Source of the DNA: Methanobrevibacter sp. | GTDB lineage: Archaea; Methanobacteriota; Methanobacteria; Methanobacteriales; Methanobacteriaceae | Direction: 5' to 3' | Assembly: GCF_017432245.1 (NCBI RefSeq) | Contig: NZ_JAFRJO010000004.1 | Coordinates: forward strand, 25,072-57,071 | DNA: 32,000 nucleotides | Notes under the pieces: model-generated | The model's database searches: none | The model's input: the letters and a program-made list of their open reading frames with translations, nothing else | What the model was told of the DNA's origin: nothing | In this document: one piece after another, positions 9,095 to 31,793 of the stretch | Layout: each line of letters opens with the position of its first letter | Position numbering within the stretch: the stretch's first letter is position 1 | Translations under genes and position numbers: made by a program

Positions 9095-9736
9095 TTATTT
9101 TTCTAGATAATTATCAATTCTTTCACCAAAAATATTGTTGTAAAATTGAATGATGAAACCGACTGTAACAGCTGAAAAGATGGTTCCTTCACGAACCCCT
9201 TCAAGGTGGCCTATGAATGCCAATGCCAAAATGACACCTATGCTTACAACAGTAACATCAAAAAATGGCTTGACCTTACCCCAATCCTTGTTCAGGACTT
9301 CCCCTATCGCCACCACAGCACCATCTCCGGGAAGCATGGTAATGTCAGACTTTACTTCAATGACAAGACCGAATGCAAGAACAAGACAGCTAATGATTAG
9401 CAAGATCCATTGACTTATATAATTTGTTGGATTGATGAAGTCAATGAAACTTAAGTTAAAATCAATCATATAGCCAAAGAGAATGCATACAAGCATTTGA
9501 GCTATTTGTGATAATGTGATTTTTCTTAAAAGAACCATTTGGAATATGACAAGCAACACATTGAAAATTATTGTGAATTCTCCTACAGTCAATGGAAAAG
9601 CAACAGCTAGAACAGCAGGAATGCATGATATAGGAGGAGTGCCTAAAGTGGATTTAAGAGATAATGCAATGCCTAAAGACATTATGGTCACTCCAAGAAT
9701 AAGTAAAATATATCTAATAATCAATTTTTTATCCAT
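9095..9736 (-). CDS. Polytopic membrane protein, YczE/YitT-like (DUF6198-type)
   Basis: 213 aa, about 6 TM helices. LILGVTIMSLGIALSLKSTLGTPPISCIPAVL and GDGAVVAIGEVL resemble the YczE/YyaS family pattern. Confidence 0.65.
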   Translation of the reverse strand: MDKKLIIRYILLILGVTIMSLGIALSLKSTLGTPPISCIPAVLAVAFPLTVGEFTIIFNVLLVIFQMVLLRKITLSQIAQMLVCILFGYMIDFNLSFIDFINPTNYISQWILLIISCLVLAFGLVIEVKSDITMLPGDGAVVAIGEVLNKDWGKVKPFFDVTVVSIGVILALAFIGHLEGVREGTIFSAVTVGFIIQFYNNIFGERIDNYLEK

Positions 9737-9812
9737 TCTAAAACCTTTCCTATCAATTAAAAAAATAGTATTCCTCTAAAACCTTTCCTATCAATTAAAA
9801 AAAATAGTTTCC
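9737..9812. repeat. Tandem 38-bp duplication of the leader immediately upstream of the 9095..9736 gene
   Basis: 9737-9774 (TCTAAAACCTTTCCTATCAATTAAAAAAATAGTATTCC) and 9775-9812 (TCTAAAACCTTTCCTATCAATTAAAAAAAATAGTTTCC) are head-to-tail, differing only in A-run length and one indel. Copy 1 abuts the start codon. Confidence 0.8.
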
Positions 9813-25507: not shown

Positions 25508-25542
25508 ATTTCCATTCTATTATTTTTTTTTATGATAATTTT

Positions 25543-25783
25543 TAGTTATAAGTTATAAGTTATAACTAATAACTTATAAAATATAAGAAATAACTTAAAA
25601 ATAAAAACTTATAAATGATAAATTATAAAGTAAAAGTAATAAGATATAACTTAAAACTTATATAGTATAACTTATAAATTATAATATATAAGTAATAACT
25701 AGGAAGTAATAACTTACAAATAATAACAAATAAGTTTTAAGAAAAAACTTCTAAGTTATTCCAAGTTATTCATTATAAGTTAT
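25543..25783. repeat. Iteron array of AAGTTAT / ATAACTT (candidate centromere-like site/operator upstream of parA)
   Basis: Perfect AAGTTAT at 25550, 25557, 25753, 25763 and 25777. Perfect ATACTT-orientation copies (ATAACTT) at 25569, 25590, 25646, 25667 and 25709. At least 5 one-mismatch copies, e.g. 25543, 25604, 25653, 25695, 25731. Orientation runs F-F-F, then R x5-8, then F-F-F. The last copy overlaps a TATA-like TTATAAAA about 55 bp before the parA ATG. Confidence 0.8.
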
Positions 25784-25837
25784 AAAATTTAAGAAATCAC
25801 TTTATTTTAAGAAAAAATACTAAGGAGAATTAATATA

Positions 25838-26611
25838 ATGGGAGAAACTATTGCCGTAATGAATCAAAAAGGCGGATGTGGGAAGACTACAACTGTAGTT
25901 AATTTGGCAACATCACTTGCAGCTATGGGAAAGGCCGTCCTTGTAGTCGATATGGATCCGCAAGCTAACGCTACAACAAGTTTTGGAATTAATAAAACAG
26001 AAATCAAGAAGACAGTATACACTGCTTTAGTAAACGAATGCAGTGTTCAAAAAGCTACAATTCCAACAAAAATTGAAAACCTATTCATACTTCCAAGCAA
26101 TATCGACTTAAGCGGTATTGAAGTGGAATTAAGCAAGGAAGCTAACTATCATATAGCTTTAAAGAACTTGCTTGAACCTATTAAAGGCATCTTTGATTAC
26201 ATTATAATAGACTTGCCACCATCTCTTGGAATAATAACAATAAATTCACTAATAGCTGCAGACAGCGTATTGATACCGATTCAAGCTGAATATTTTGCAC
26301 TTGAAGGATTGGCCGACCTGATGAATACAATCAAACTTGTGGAAACAAGATTAAGAAGCCCGACACCAATCAAGGGAATACTTCTAACATTGTATGATGC
26401 AAGAACCAGATTAGGAAGGGAAGTCTATTCCGAGCTAAAAAAATACTTCAAGGACAAGGAATACGTATTCAATACAGTCATTCCAAGAAACATACGTTTG
26501 GCAGAAGCTCCAAGTTATGGAAAACCATGTATTGTCTATGATCCAGAAAGCAAAGGTGCAATAGCTTACTTGAAACTTGCTAAGGAAATATTGGAAAGGG
26601 ATGGAAACTGA
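25838..26611 (+). CDS. parA: ParA/Soj-family partition ATPase (deviant Walker A)
   Basis: IAVMNQKGGCGKTTTVVNLA (KGGxGKT with signature Lys), VLVVDMDPQANAT, IIIDLPPSLG, and LPSNIDLSGIEVEL. 257 aa with no N-terminal HTH. AAGGAGA RBS. Confidence 0.9.
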   Translation: MGETIAVMNQKGGCGKTTTVVNLATSLAAMGKAVLVVDMDPQANATTSFGINKTEIKKTVYTALVNECSVQKATIPTKIENLFILPSNIDLSGIEVELSKEANYHIALKNLLEPIKGIFDYIIIDLPPSLGIITINSLIAADSVLIPIQAEYFALEGLADLMNTIKLVETRLRSPTPIKGILLTLYDARTRLGREVYSELKKYFKDKEYVFNTVIPRNIRLAEAPSYGKPCIVYDPESKGAIAYLKLAKEILERDGN

Positions 26612-26688
26612 AAAATAAAAAATAGAAAGAGAAAGAGAGTTATTGAATTAAAATAGGAATATGATACTTGATGATTACAATAATGATT

Positions 26689-26696
26689 TTTATATA
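26689..26696 (+). promoter_or_regulatory. Consensus archaeal TATA box positioned for a leaderless or near-leaderless transcript of the 26717 gene
   Basis: TTTATATA at 26689-26696. Its centre is about 25 bp upstream of the ATG at 26717, the usual TATA-to-TSS distance in archaea. Confidence 0.35.
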
Positions 26697-26716
26697 ACAC
26701 GAAAGGGTTTGATGAA

Positions 26717-27361
26717 ATGGCTAAAAAGGAAAAGAATACAGGATTAGGAAGAGGATTGGATTCATTGATTCCAAAAATAGAAGAGAAAGATTTTGAAGAA
26801 GGCATCAGTCTTGAGGATATGTTAAGGGAATCCGAAGAGGAATCAAAAACATTTGAAGAACTGGTTGAAGAAGTTGAAGAGGAATTCGATGGTGAAGATG
26901 AACTTCAAGTTTTAGAAAAATCAGCAGATGTTGAAGAGGAAAAAGTAGAAGAAAGTTCAGAGTACACAAATGTTTTCTTCAATGATGATGAGAAACCACC
27001 AGAAAATGGTGCAAAAGATGAAGAAAAAATCAGCTCAGAAAAAAGTGTAGAAATAATTGATTCTACAGTTAATTTAAATGAAGAAAGTGATGCAACTAGT
27101 GAAATAATTAAAGCTTCAGATGATTTAAAAGAAGTTGGTAGTCTTCTTTCAGAAAAAGAGGAGAAACTGATAGATGAAGTCATCGAAACTGTGGAAAATA
27201 ATCCAAGAATCACTTTATGGTCTGCAAGATCAGCGGCTGTACTAAGGTACTTGAGAAAAACCGAACCTGAATTCAGCATAAGCAGTGAAGCATCAAACTT
27301 GATAGATGCTGCAATAGCTGAAAAGTATCCTGAAATCTGGACATTGTTTAATCATTTGTAA
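26717..27361 (+). CDS. Acidic protein with ParB-like N-terminal peptide and C-terminal ribbon-helix-helix-like module (candidate ParA partner; not a canonical ParB)
   Basis: aa 1-20 are MAKKEKNTGLGRGLDSLIPK, matching the conserved ParB/Spo0J N-terminal GLGRGL(D/E/S)ALL ParA-interaction motif. aa ~21-160 are very acidic low-complexity sequence with no ParB/Srx GERRxRA box and no HTH. aa 161-207 are NNPRITLWSARSAAVLRYLRKTEPEFSISSEASNLIDAAIAEKY, a beta-helix-turn-helix pattern like ParG/omega/CopG. Confidence 0.75.
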   Translation: MAKKEKNTGLGRGLDSLIPKIEEKDFEEGISLEDMLRESEEESKTFEELVEEVEEEFDGEDELQVLEKSADVEEEKVEESSEYTNVFFNDDEKPPENGAKDEEKISSEKSVEIIDSTVNLNEESDATSEIIKASDDLKEVGSLLSEKEEKLIDEVIETVENNPRITLWSARSAAVLRYLRKTEPEFSISSEASNLIDAAIAEKYPEIWTLFNHL

Positions 27362-27534
27362 GATACTTACATGATTTAGAATTATGATTATCCACTTAAC
27401 ATCAATAAATCAAAGGATTGGTAGATGATTGGAATCTGTTTTTAAATGGATTCCTTTATCTATCAATTAAGAAGATTAACAAATTTTATATTAATTTAAA
27501 AATAGCTAACTAAAATTAAAACACGGGGATTAAA

Positions 27535-29138: not shown

Positions 29139-29259
29139 ATCAGCTCAAATTAATAATAATTATAATTATAGATTAGTAATATATTAATTTATTGAATAAC
29201 AATTTAAAAAAATGAATTTGTAATTAAAATGATTTTTTAAAAAGATAGTGTGTGAAAAA

Positions 29260-30201
29260 ATGTTGATTGATGAGGAATTGAAATTAAAAAACATTACCCT
29301 TAGAAATCGTATAGTCATGCCTCCTATGGCTAGGGAAGGCAGTGCTGATGGAAAGGTGACAGAAAATCTTATAGAATATTATCGCTTGAGAGCAGAATGT
29401 ACAGGGCTTATAATAGTTGAACACGCATATGTTTCCATTGAAGGAAAATCAACCCCAAAACAGCTTTCTATGGCTGATGATTCTGTTATTGAATCTTATA
29501 GAAATTTGACAGAAGCCATTCATAAGAAAAATTGCTTTGCAATAGCCCAATTAAATCATGGCGGGAAAGAGAGAATTTCAAGGGATTGGATAAACATAAA
29601 TTCCATGACTAAAGAGGATATTGAAAAGGTAAAAGAGGATTTCGCAAAAGCCGCTATAAGAACTAAAAAAGCTGGCTTTGACGGTGTGGAAATACATGCG
29701 GCCCATGAATACCTATTGACTCATTTCTATTCACCTTACACAAATAAAAGAACTGATGAGTATGGGGGAAATCTTGAAAATCGTTTGAGATTGGCTAATG
29801 AAATCATTCAGGAAGTTCGTGCATCTGTAGGTGAAGACTATATTGTAGCCATTCGCTTTGGCGCATATGATTATTTGGAGGGAGGAAGCAAATTGGAGGA
29901 AATTCCTTTTGCTGTCCAATCATTCATAGATTCAGGGGTAGATTTAATTGACATTAGCGGCGGGCTATGCAGATCCAGAAATCCATACAGCAAAGAGCCA
30001 GGATACTTTAAGGAACTTAGTAAAATAGCTAAGGAATCATCTTCAGTTCCAGTGATTCTTACTGGAGGTGTGAAAAAAGCAAAAGATGCTGAAAATCTGC
30101 TGAAAGAGGGATACTGTGACCTTATTGGCATTGGCAGGGCTATGTTAATGGATGCTGAGTGGTCTAAAAAGGCATTGAAATCATTGAAAAATATCCAATA
30201 G
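29260..30201 (+). CDS. Old Yellow Enzyme-family NADH:flavin oxidoreductase
   Basis: LKNRIVMPPM, AQLNHGG, GFDGVEIHAAHEYLLTHFYSPYTNKRTDEYGG, and IGIGRAML. ATG 29260 with GTGTGTGA upstream is preferred over the track's GTG 29248. Confidence 0.85.
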   Translation: MLIDEELKLKNITLRNRIVMPPMAREGSADGKVTENLIEYYRLRAECTGLIIVEHAYVSIEGKSTPKQLSMADDSVIESYRNLTEAIHKKNCFAIAQLNHGGKERISRDWININSMTKEDIEKVKEDFAKAAIRTKKAGFDGVEIHAAHEYLLTHFYSPYTNKRTDEYGGNLENRLRLANEIIQEVRASVGEDYIVAIRFGAYDYLEGGSKLEEIPFAVQSFIDSGVDLIDISGGLCRSRNPYSKEPGYFKELSKIAKESSSVPVILTGGVKKAKDAENLLKEGYCDLIGIGRAMLMDAEWSKKALKSLKNIQ

Positions 30202-30407
30202 GTATAACTACTTATTCTAACTTATATCCTAACTTAATCCTAACTTATATCCTAACTAATAGTTTATATAACTTGAAAAATATAATTATATTATTATATA
30301 AAAAAATCATTATCAAAATTTATTGAAATATTTGATATAATATGATTTGATTATCAAAGATTACTTAATCATAATTACAATGTTTTAAAATAAAGTAAGG
30401 TGTTTTA

Positions 30408-31793
30408 ATGAATATCCTTGAAAAATTAAATGCAATTAAAAATCAAGAAATTACTGCAAAGGAAAATGTAGAAGCTTACATTAAGGTTATTGAAGAAAAG
30501 AACGATGACATTAACGCTTTTCTTGAATTAAACAAAGAACAAGCTATCGCTAAAGCAGAAGAGATTGATGCTAAAATAAAGGCTGGAGAAGAAGTCGGAG
30601 CTCTTGCTGGTTTAGTGTTTGGTATTAAGGCTAACATAAATGTAGAAGACTTTATCATATCTGCTGCATCCAAAACCTTAGAGGATTATATCGGAAGCTA
30701 TGATGCAACTGTAGTTAAGAAAATCAAGGCTGAAGACGGAATCATCATAGGAATAAACAACATGGATGAATTTGCAGCAGGAAGTTCAACTGAAACCTCA
30801 TACTATGGAGCTGTAAACAACCCAGCAGCACCTGGAAGAATCCCTGGTGGTTCAAGTGGAGGAAGTGCAGCAGCAGTGGCATCTGGAATGTGTGACATTG
30901 CAATCGGTTCCGACACTGGTGGATCAATCAGAAACCCATCTTCCCACTGTGGAGTCTTAGGTATGAAACCTACCTATGGTGCTGTTTCAAGACAAGGATT
31001 GCTTGACTTGTCAATGAGTTTAGACCAAATCGGTCCTATGGCCCGTGACATCACTGGAATCACCCTTGCTTTAGACACTATTGTTGGATATGACCCAACC
31101 GAATGTACAACATTGAAATGGGACGCTCCAAACTTCACTGAAATAGCTGAGTCTGTCAAAGATGCTGAAAAGCCATTGACAGGAATGAAAATAGCTACCT
31201 GTAAGCAGTTCAAGGAAGTAACCAATGATGAAATCAATGCAATCATTGATGAATCCGTTGCAAAGCTAGAGGAATTAGGTGCAGAAGTAGTGGAATTGAG
31301 TTTCAACTACATTGACATTTGTCTTCCTACATACTATCTTATAAACTATGTTGAATTCTTCTCTGCAACCAGAAAATACGATGGAAGAAAATACGGTTCC
31401 AGAATCGAAGAGGTATGTGGTGAGGAAGTTCTCAGAAGAATCCAAATGGGTTCATACATTTCACAAAAGGAATTCAGCGGCAAATACTATCAAAAAGCTC
31501 TTCAAGCAAGAACAGTCATTAGAAATGAAATCAATGAAATGCTTGAAGGAGTGGACTTGATTGTAGGTCCAACCGTTCCTAAATTGCCACACAAATTAGG
31601 TGAAAAGTTAGAGCCTATGGAAATGTATGCATACGATGTGCTTACCGTAATTGCTAACTTGGCAGGTATTCCAGCTGCAAGCGTAAAGGCTGGTGAAGTT
31701 GATGGCATTCCTGTAGGATTGCAATTGCAGGCAAAACCTCAAGACGATGCAAAAATCGTTCAGGCAATGGCTGCATTTGAGTATGCTAAATAA
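30408..31793 (+). CDS. gatA: Asp/Glu-tRNA amidotransferase subunit A
   Basis: Amidase signature [14 protein letters not shown]...[17 protein letters not shown], a GatA-typical N-terminus ([24 protein letters not shown]) and C-terminus ([10 protein letters not shown]). Confidence 0.9.

Follow-up and report, generated by a model that had tools for sequence, protein, structure and literature searches.

A SegB-family protein with a ParB-like N-terminal motif, encoded beside a Soj-type ParA and a heptad array in Methanobrevibacter

To our knowledge, no dedicated system for chromosome segregation other than SegAB has been described in archaea, and the experiments on SegAB have so far all been done in Sulfolobales. 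Here we describe a parA-segB operon in a stretch of 32,000 nucleotides (nt) from Methanobrevibacter sp. (NCBI RefSeq assembly GCF_017432245.1, contig NZ_JAFRJO010000004.1, positions 25,072 to 57,071 of the forward strand; hereafter the window). The gene at the center of the analysis is a segB-family open reading frame (ORF) with an ATG start, positions 26717-27361 of the plus strand, that encodes 214 amino acids (aa) plus a stop codon. Within the archaeal SegAB system for chromosome segregation, SegB binds specific DNA sites and partners the ParA-like SegA. The SegB crystal structure shows a ribbon-helix-helix (RHH) fold, which can be superposed on ParG at 0.7 Å, and the ∼1000-fold boost that SegB gives to the ATPase activity of SegA requires its unstructured residues 1-21 (PMC8682754). 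The invariant core of the Sulfolobus SegB site is AGA-S-TCT (PMC12284271). Euryarchaeal SegB homologues from Methanobacteriales and Thermococcus have already been published (PMC12139799, PMC12284271, PMC5120986), and those of Methanobacteriales range from 68 to 331 aa, with lineage-specific middle insertions that have been ascribed to slippage in G[A]n tracts (PMC12139799). Reviews describe SegB as without similarity to ParB (PMC9178275), and the latest comparative study regards the N-termini of euryarchaeal SegB as poorly conserved, lineage specific and of unknown function, and proposes transfer of the system from Sulfolobaceae (PMC12139799).

Two bacterial partition systems provide the other points of comparison. 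In ParB of Myxococcus xanthus, residues L11, R13, L15, L18 and I19 are experimentally critical, and R13 docks on Y81, E82, D110 and E117 of ParA; about half of bacterial ParBs carry K at the central R position (PMC12462528). Omega, the RHH ParB protein of pSM19035, binds 7 to 10 contiguous 7-bp repeats in either orientation over the parA promoter, with one dimer per heptad, and needs at least four contiguous repeats for ParA activation (PMC9499535).

Based on homology to crystallized SegB, a shared signature core, synteny and the DNA-reading residues, all of which fit, we conclude that the window protein is a member of the SegB family. Its N-terminus carries a candidate ParA-activating motif of the ParB type, its partner ATPase resembles bacterial Soj, and the region upstream of the operon holds a long array of 7-bp repeats that is a candidate centromere. 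We consider it probable that the protein is the SegB orthologue of an M. olleyae-like Methanobrevibacter and serves as the centromere-binding adaptor in a two-gene ParA-type partition operon, through the four-step mechanism set out below. We are most confident of the identity of the family, and less so of heptad binding and of the mechanism of segregation.

Family identity and conservation of the protein

A phmmer search of PDB sequences matched residues 121-211 of the window protein to residues 11-99 of Sulfolobus solfataricus SegB (7DUV, E=9.4e-9; 7DV2, E=1e-7). A profile built from 41 diverse family sequences matched SegB (7DV2/7DUV) at E=6e-16, in an alignment that spans profile positions 3-68 of 70. 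The C-terminal sequence is NPRITLWS-ARSAAVLRYLRK-TEPEF-SISSEASNLIDAAIAEKY, in which the segment N-N-P-R-I-T-L-W-S-A-R fits 8 of the 11 positions of the published SegB signature, (K/R)(D/N)P(K/R)I(G/T)(V/L)WS(Y/P)(P/E) (PMC12139799); the core NPRITLWS is complete and three flanking positions deviate. R164 and W168 align with the base-contacting K52 and W56 of S. solfataricus SegB, and R in place of K52 has been reported for euryarchaeal SegB (Yen et al., PMC8682754). The residues that correspond to the SegB dimer-dimer loop, T182, P184 and F186, are invariant across the family. By homology to the SegB crystal structure, we assign the C-terminus to the RHH fold. The first-pass annotation of this DNA, made from the sequence alone, had likened the C-terminus to the RHH of ParG, and the likeness holds by way of SegB, given the published superposition of the two.

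Structure prediction gave a C-terminal domain model with a predicted local distance difference test score (pLDDT) of 82 and a predicted template-modeling score (pTM) of 0.70. In the AlphaFold2 (AF2) prediction from a 138-sequence alignment, confident helices were found in the C-terminal domain only (residues 146-161, 170-180, 190-203 and 205-210), and their order is that of the published SegB α1-β1-α2-α3-α4, with the strand region (R164-S169) left as coil. A Foldseek search with the C-terminal model placed SegB chains at ranks 1 to 3, all non-significant (E of about 0.25, template-modeling score of about 0.42, root-mean-square deviation of 12 Å). The AF2 monomer collapses the intertwined-dimer fold without the strand, and the fold assignment thus rests on sequence homology. 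With the full-length model, Foldseek returned nothing (best E=2.8) because that model is mostly disordered.

Scans with Pfam, NCBIfam and PHROGs found no model for the whole protein or for any of its thirds, and the protein had looked unclassifiable because these collections hold no model for it. The C-terminal 75 residues had no Pfam match up to E=10, the ParG and Omega_Repress families included. Matches to ParM_N (E=0.1), Rap1a (E=0.13) and phrog_22349 (E=0.005, with no domain passing alone) were treated as noise.

The ORF is a conserved, genuine gene. Its product has about 1000 close homologues, and relatives are encoded in 227 GTDB species genomes according to a genome scan that used a tight alignment and therefore sampled loci skewed towards Methanobacteriales. 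The reading frame is open in 79 of 80 loci even though protein length varies from 99 to 331 aa, and the C-terminal 75 residues are 100% identical to those encoded on a contig of an M. olleyae metagenome-assembled genome (MAG). When 1.84 billion cluster representatives were searched exhaustively with HMMER, the SegB C-terminal domain matched just 198 clusters (51-332 aa). The gene for a ParA lies directly upstream of segB in 76 of the 80 loci, and in the other four the contig ends there; the same order is found in Thermococcus, Methanosphaera and Methanobacterium.

Some members of the family depart from this pattern or carry misleading names. Several metagenomic members (P0171, P0181, P0190, P0192, P0212 and others) have two SegB-like RHH stretches per chain; these proteins begin directly at the RHH domain, without the ParB-like N-terminal motif, and may be single-chain pseudo-dimers. 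A 322-aa Methanosaeta sp. protein (P0128/P0437) likewise has two SegB-like matched stretches. Four SegB homologues (P0083, P0117, P0324 and P0333) are named “AAA family ATPase” or “ATPase AAA” in NCBI and UniRef but are without an ATPase domain; the names are probably annotation spill-over from the adjacent parA. Within the coding region of the acidic linker, the minus strand holds a 124-aa, Ser/Phe/Leu-rich ORF (26905-27279), most likely not a gene but the shadow of the purine-rich strand.

The N-terminal motif and its partner ATPase

Residues 9-19 of the window protein read GLGRGLDSLIP. The spacing of L10, R12, L14, L17 and I18 is identical to that of the critical M. xanthus ParB residues L11, R13, L15, L18 and I19, and the first-pass annotation, which had read the segment as a ParB-type ParA-binding motif, is borne out to this extent. 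The motif is also retained among orthologues, being present in 79 of the 80 loci from species-representative genomes and in 101 of 114 diverse profile hits, including Thermococcus litoralis, T. aggregans, Methanothermobacter, Methanobacterium and Methanosphaera; it also occurs in Archaeoglobales MAGs. The pattern [LM]G-x-G-[LIVMF]-x-x-[LIVMF]-[LIVMF] was found in the first 45 residues of 69 of the best 150 representatives clustered at 50% identity, and many of the representatives without it have truncated or miscalled N-termini or belong to the two-domain subgroup. Of the 69, 33 have R and 27 have K as the central residue, matching the roughly 50/50 split of bacterial ParB. From these proteins the euryarchaeal consensus start is L-G-(R/K)-G-L-x-x-L-I.

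As a single peptide, the N-terminus matched residues 3-19 of Thermus thermophilus Spo0J with 10 of 17 residues identical and about 14 of 17 similar, a match that is non-significant alone (E=1). We also ran a motif-only profile (21 columns, 44 diverse SegBs) against 177,635 PDB sequences. It retrieved the extreme N-termini of three ParB/Spo0J proteins (1VZ0, E=0.0021; Caulobacter crescentus 6T1F, E=0.11; Helicobacter pylori 4UMK, E=0.44), and the sole other matches were to internal positions of three lumazine-synthase-like chains, at E of about 0.1-0.2. The resemblance of the motif to ParB exceeds chance. No match to a PDB ParB reaches beyond the first ∼19 residues of the window protein, and since the protein is without a CTPase or helix-turn-helix (HTH) domain, its sequence indicates that it is no member of the ParB family.

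The start of Sulfolobales SegB is of another kind. Thirty Sulfolobales SegBs begin with MSELD(F/L)(L/I)L followed by K/R-rich residues, and the LG(R/K)G half is absent; in characterized members, the conserved opening 10-12 residues make up the tail that activates SegA. In a MAFFT alignment, this start aligns only with the second half of the euryarchaeal motif (G-LDSLI; L-D-x-L-(I/L)), in which L14 forms an invariant column.

The 257-aa product of parA was compared with ATPases of known structure. Its best PDB matches were M. xanthus ParA (8RAY, 1.6e-76), H. pylori Soj (6IUB, 7.5e-65) and T. thermophilus Soj (1WCV, 1e-56), whereas Sulfolobus SegA (7DUT) matched at merely 2.2e-18 and over residues 5-169 only. 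Identity is 48.8% to M. xanthus ParA and 47.0% to H. pylori Soj, as against 32-33% to the SegAs of S. solfataricus (32.9%) and S. acidocaldarius, and it is 53-62% to the segB-adjacent ParAs of Thermococcus, Methanosphaera and Methanobacterium. Based on these comparisons, we conclude that the partner ATPase is of Soj type and not of SegA type (∼220 aa, with an atypical non-sandwich dimer).

The alignment to 8RAY is gap-free through residue 205, such that residue j of the window ParA corresponds to M. xanthus residue j+20, with D40 at the site of the D60A substitution. By this correspondence, all six hydrophobic residues of the ParB-peptide pocket are conserved (V96, L130, I132, I135, L167 and L172, equivalent to M. 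xanthus V116, L150, L152, L155, L187 and L192), and three of the four residues that dock the Arg are identical (Y61, D90 and E97). The pocket positions are likewise conserved in other euryarchaeal ParAs. Sulfolobales SegA has a deletion across the Tyr and carries T, S/G and A at three of the hydrophobic pocket positions. The pocket is thus intact where the partner protein has the motif and altered in Sulfolobales SegA, so that pocket and peptide co-vary between the branches of SegAB. In our view this co-variation, read from alignments, is the strongest indirect evidence that the N-terminal motif would be a ParA-activating element.

The heptad array, the acidic linker and the surrounding DNA

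The 330-nt intergenic region upstream of parA contains an array of 31 contiguous TAA(G/C)TTA heptads and, past a phase shift, a few more, which stop about 35 nt before the parA start codon (Table 1). Tandem Repeats Finder (TRF) reported a period of 7 with 22.1 copies (consensus AGTTATA) and a period of 14 with 13.9 copies. In register, 28 of 34 positions match at least 5 of the 7 nucleotides, compared with no more than 2 in any other phase, and G-centered and C-centered heptads are intermixed, that is, both orientations occur. Lag-7 identity was 0.62, compared with 0.36 at other lags, which is 8 standard deviations above the window mean; no other AT-rich segment exceeded 0.025. Exact TAASTTA (S, G or C) occurs 17 times in the 32 kb, with about 8 expected across the whole window, and 9 of the 17 lie in 25549-25782; eight of these nine are inside the array itself and the ninth is in the phase-shifted block that follows it.

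The arrangement recurs in related genomes. Of 71 related loci, about 68 show the heptad consensus ahead of parA, and the period-7 peak was the strongest of the entire ∼8-kb locus in 57 of 59. Loci of the Methanobrevibacter group have 13-82 in-phase heptads, and those of Methanothermobacter, Thermococcus, Methanosphaera and Methanobacterium have 4-8, with heptads preceding parA in each of these genera although their GC contents differ widely. In Methanothermobacter there are about 8 in-phase units despite a much higher GC content. In Thermococcus litoralis, the sequence upstream of parA includes AGTTATA ACTTATA TCTTATA; an earlier search with the Sulfolobus motif gave no convincing site near segAB in Thermococcus (PMC12284271). 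The TAA(G/C)TTA unit is pseudo-palindromic and shares with AGA-S-TCT the geometry of three nucleotides, a central G or C, and three nucleotides. Together, these observations suggest that the array is probably the centromere of the SegB-like protein, which would bind the heptads. A contribution of the array as promoter or operator is also likely, because the heptad sequence resembles TATA boxes.

A second set of heptad-like cores lies outside the operon. Between an ORF similar to Old Yellow Enzyme (OYE; 29248-30201) and an amidase ORF (30408-31793), a period-12 tandem repeat of TATCCTAACTTA (4.2 copies, 30210-30261) contains three exact TAACTTA cores spaced 11-12 bp apart. This repeat could be a secondary SegB site or be unrelated.

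Between the N-terminal motif and the RHH domain, the protein is acidic and of low complexity. The first-pass annotation had put residues 21-160 at about 40% Asp/Glu without a recognizable fold; we measured 39% Asp+Glu and 9% Lys+Arg, with a net charge of -41, and in the AF2 model residues ∼57-135 had pLDDT below 50 and no secondary structure. Within Methanobrevibacter, the linker is poorly conserved and has many insertions and deletions. Its length across loci is 8-229 aa; in the Methanobrevibacter group the range is 49-229 aa and all loci but one have at least 77 aa. The Asp/Glu fraction of the linker in the 66 Methanobrevibacter-group loci is 0.22-0.57 and the net charge -10 to -81, except for one 49-aa linker at +1. 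Other genera have neutral or basic linkers of 8-25 aa, K-rich in Methanosphaera and 9 aa long in Methanothermobacter. As judged from these sequences, the long polyacidic linker is specific to Methanobrevibacter. The coding strand of the linker region is 67% purine and is thus compatible with the published slippage model for expansion of the SegB middle.

Larger arrays and longer linkers coincide at the genus level; array size and linker length are weakly correlated across loci (rho=0.24, p=0.05), and the correlation is phylogenetically confounded. Co-expansion of centromere and tether is possible, and we treat it as a lead and do not use it as evidence.

A second short motif, S-L-E-D-x-L, is conserved just ahead of the linker insertion, 10-15 residues past the ParB-like motif. 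It occurs in 77 of 80 Methanobrevibacter-group proteins, at 28-38 residues from the start, and is absent from Methanothermobacter and Thermococcus. AF2 predicted a low-confidence helix over it (residues 32-40).

Table 1. Features of the parA-segB locus, in window positions
Feature	Position	Strand	Basis
31 contiguous in-phase TAA(G/C)TTA heptads; candidate centromere/operator	25542..25758	.	TRF, register analysis
4-6 further heptads past a 3-nt phase shift (CAAGTTA ... TAAGTTA ... TAAGAAA)	25762..25803	.	Register analysis
ParA/Soj-type deviant Walker A partition ATPase, 257 aa, the “SegA” of the operon	25838..26611	+	Pfam AAA_31, E=8e-66
parA-segB spacer, 105 nt, containing TTTATATA at 26689-26696 (possible internal TATA box)	26612..26716	+	Sequence
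GLGRGLDSLIP, residues 9-19; candidate ParB-type ParA-binding/ATPase-activating motif	26741..26773	+	Motif conservation, profile
SLEDML, residues 31-36; second conserved short motif, S-L-E-D-x-L	26807..26824	+	Column conservation of about 90-100%
Acidic, low-complexity, length-variable linker, predicted disordered, residues ∼37-145	26825..27151	+	Composition, AF2, indels
SegB-type RHH DNA-binding/dimerization domain, residues 146-214	27152..27358	+	Homology to SegB, AF2 domain model
Hairpin followed by a T-rich tract downstream of segB	27431..27464	+	Terminator-like consensus match only

The gap between parA and segB is 38-149 nt in the closest clade, and in most other Methanobrevibacter species segB directly adjoins or overlaps parA (-14 to +10 nt); the TTTATATA in the spacer is a candidate for a clade-specific internal segB promoter and may act as such. 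The hairpin downstream of segB probably marks the end of the operon.

The neighboring genes are of a housekeeping kind and include a TrpB-like pyridoxal phosphate enzyme, a xylose-isomerase-like TIM barrel, a haloacid dehalogenase-type (HAD) hydrolase, the OYE reductase, the amidase, LeuA, CobQ and others. We considered a plasmid or provirus setting and rejected it based on these neighbors and on the lack of mobile-element genes in the window; the window is chromosomal DNA. A replication origin was considered for the AT-rich array and was also rejected: the window has no Orc1/Cdc6 gene, the period is 7 bp, and the array accompanies parA across genera. An Rfam scan of the window found nothing. 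Elsewhere in the window, a 38-bp unit, TCTAAAACCTTTCCTATCAATTAAAAAAAATAGTTTCC, occurs twice in tandem with 94% identity (9737-9812), directly upstream of a minus-strand ORF (9095-9736).

Proposed mechanism, alternatives and relation to known systems

We propose that the C-terminal RHH dimerizes as in SegB, with its paired β-strands (R164-I-T-L-W168-S) entering the major groove. Neighboring dimers would probably cover the 31-heptad array upstream of parA at one dimer per 7 bp. Such loading, probably cooperative, would produce a large filament of DNA and protein as a mark on the chromosome, and would probably also autoregulate the operon. Based on motif identity and pocket conservation, the segment L10-G-R12-G-L14-D-S-L17-I18 would form a short amphipathic helix seated in the hydrophobic cleft of the ParA ATP-dimer interface, and by analogy with the M. 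xanthus ParB-ParA experiments, R12 would dock on Y61, D90 and E97. In this way, the peptide would tether nucleoid-bound ParA-ATP to the SegB-centromere complex, trigger ATP hydrolysis and drive a ParABS-like diffusion-ratchet. The ∼110-residue polyacidic linker may be a flexible, DNA-repelled tether that projects the activating peptides off the filament, a speculative function; it may have arisen by lineage-specific expansion of a short ancestral linker. Taken as a whole, the euryarchaeal system would be a hybrid, in which the Soj motor and the ParB-type peptide are of bacterial type, the SegB RHH is archaeal, and the heptad centromere is like that of omega. The lack of a ParB CTPase domain implies that juxtaposition of the peptides would have to come from RHH dimerization and packing on the array and not from CTP-dependent clamp closure.

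Several observations weigh against this explanation or limit it. The residues that correspond to the DNA contacts K75, R78 and K81 of SegB are all Ser in the window protein, and its mode of DNA binding may differ from that of SegB. Structural support for the RHH is weak, given that the AF2 monomer shows the strand region as coil or helix and that the Foldseek matches to SegB were non-significant. The fourth Arg-docking residue of ParA, M. xanthus E82, is T62 here and so not conserved. TAASTTA is AT-rich and overlaps the TATA-like TTATAA, and part of its conservation could reflect a promoter or chromatin function. Every step of the mechanism is one that we infer for euryarchaeal SegB. Localization of Sulfolobus SegAB has been reported to be unlike that of ParABS (PMC12139799), so that a diffusion-ratchet is not to be taken for granted; polyploidy, moreover, is common among euryarchaea (PMC5120986) and may make active partition less necessary. 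For these last two reasons, segregation by a ParABS-like ratchet is the least secure part of the proposal.

Other explanations of the locus differ in what they make of the same features. An undescribed chimeric family, unrelated to known partition adaptors, was how the first-pass annotation had seen the protein, and the empty profile scans of the whole and of each third, together with the misleading “AAA family ATPase” names, speak in its favor. Homology to crystallized SegB refutes this view, published SegB proteins are already built as an ATPase-activating tail followed by a variable middle and then a C-terminal RHH, and phylogenies with Methanobacteriales and Thermococcus SegB have been published; we give it almost no credence. 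The word “chimeric” is nevertheless fair for the euryarchaeal branch, where a ParB-type peptide would sit on a SegB RHH body. The protein might instead be essentially a transcriptional autorepressor, with the heptads as the operator of parA-segB and without a centromere role. This would suit an array that lies directly over the presumed parA promoter and contains TTATAA; the RHH partition proteins omega and ParG are also repressors (PMC9499535), and a 2016 review noted that Sulfolobus SegB sites might be regulatory (PMC5120986). An operator would not, however, need so many contiguous units (31-82), and a conserved ParA-activating peptide and partner pocket would be purposeless in a pure repressor. 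We consider pure repression quite unlikely, and the two roles are in any case compatible with each other.

The resemblance of the N-terminus to ParB might be convergent or incidental, with ParA contacted elsewhere (through SLEDxL or the RHH body) and LG(R/K)GL otherwise employed. The motif is short, its single-sequence match to Spo0J is non-significant, and the lumazine-synthase-like chains also score with the motif profile, at E of about 0.1-0.2; moreover, cross-links between S. solfataricus SegA and SegB are scattered over SegB (PMC8682754), and Sulfolobales SegB activates SegA without LG(R/K)G. On the other side stand the extreme N-terminal position of the motif in both families, the identical spacing of five functional residues with the same R/K split, and a pocket that is conserved exactly in the ATPases whose partner bears the motif and altered in Sulfolobales SegA, which together leave coincidence only a slim chance. 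Finally, the acidic linker may be a functional DNA mimic or autoinhibitory module that acts on a basic face of ParA or of the RHH, tuning specificity or serving as a “DNA cofactor.” Although sequence and length change rapidly, almost all of the 66 Methanobrevibacter-group loci have kept an acidic linker, linker expansion coincides at the genus level with array expansion (13-82 versus 4-8 heptads), and ParB and DNA act synergistically on ParA (PMC12462528). The short neutral or basic linkers of other genera imply, however, that charge is no requirement of the family, purine-tract slippage is a published neutral explanation that suits the purine-rich coding strand, and the correlation between array and linker is weak and ignores phylogeny. 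We regard a DNA-mimic role as unlikely.

The SegB family, its Methanobacteriales members and their middle insertions were known before this work. What appears to be new is that the euryarchaeal branch has a ParB-type interface, a partner of Soj type and a candidate centromere made of heptads. We found no paper that links SegB with Methanobrevibacter and deals with a ParB-type motif, or that mentions the motif; prior notice in the 2012 PNAS paper on SegAB is possible. If euryarchaea use a ParB-ParA interface on a Soj-type ATPase, then the bacterial mechanism becomes transferable to, and testable in, methanogens and Thermococcales, and the evolutionary story of SegAB needs another look. Gut and rumen methanogens have no known centromere, and the TAA(G/C)TTA array offers a concrete candidate. 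The payoff would lie in simple, decisive in vitro tests rather than in a new kind of biology. A bolder version, which we hold to be doubtful, would have euryarchaeal SegAB as a distinct hybrid partition machine and not a diverged copy of the Sulfolobus system. In it, a Soj ATPase of bacterial type would be driven through the ParB-type peptide, the archaeal RHH would polymerize on a giant centromere of heptads (31-82 units in Methanobrevibacter), and a brush of polyacidic linkers, in place of the ParB CTP-clamp, would present many activating peptides and perhaps mimic the DNA cofactor. Were the hybrid reading true, the ParB-type motif would be ancestral to SegB, the MSELDFLL tail of Sulfolobales would be a truncated derivative, and the published transfer from Sulfolobaceae would be reversed.

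Among described systems, the closest relative of the window protein is the SegB of Sulfolobales (Saccharolobus solfataricus SSO0035, 7DUV/7DV2; S. acidocaldarius). The two share a homologous C-terminal RHH, a gene immediately downstream of and co-oriented with that of a ParA-family ATPase, a plan in which a short N-terminal tail (ATPase-activating in Sulfolobales, predicted to be so here) and a variable middle precede the RHH, and the conserved DNA-reading strand P-K/R-I-x-x-W-S and dimer-dimer loop T-x-P-x-F. They differ in the start of the protein (LG(R/K)GLDxLI here, MSELDFLL-KKK in Sulfolobales), in the ATPase (257 aa and Soj-type here, a 220-aa SegA there), in the DNA site (a contiguous 31-heptad candidate centromere here, few dispersed 13-bp palindromes there) and in the ∼110-aa polyacidic linker and the Ser residues at K75, R78 and K81. 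Euryarchaeal SegAB would thus differ from the characterized Sulfolobus SegAB in all three interfaces.

With chromosomal ParB/Spo0J (M. xanthus ParB residues 11-19, T. thermophilus 1VZ0 and C. crescentus), the window protein shares the hydrophobic pattern around a central R/K, the position of the motif at the extreme N-terminus behind a short basic stretch, and the conserved pocket of the cognate ParA. Unlike those proteins, it is without the ParB/Srx CTPase, HTH and C-terminal dimerization domains (no Pfam or NCBIfam match). Like the type Ib proteins omega (pSM19035) and ParG (TP228), it is a small RHH protein, predicted to be dimeric, with a flexible N-terminal tail that would activate a ParA-family ATPase, and, as with omega, its candidate centromere lies over the presumed parA promoter and consists of contiguous 7-bp repeats that occur in both orientations. 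It has no detectable sequence homology to ParG or omega, its system is chromosomal and archaeal, its heptad is TAASTTA and not the WATCACW of omega, its array is 3-10 times longer, and its activating tail would be of the ParB type. By analogy, then, the window protein would work most like a type Ib RHH adaptor that carries the activating peptide of a type Ia (chromosomal ParB) system.

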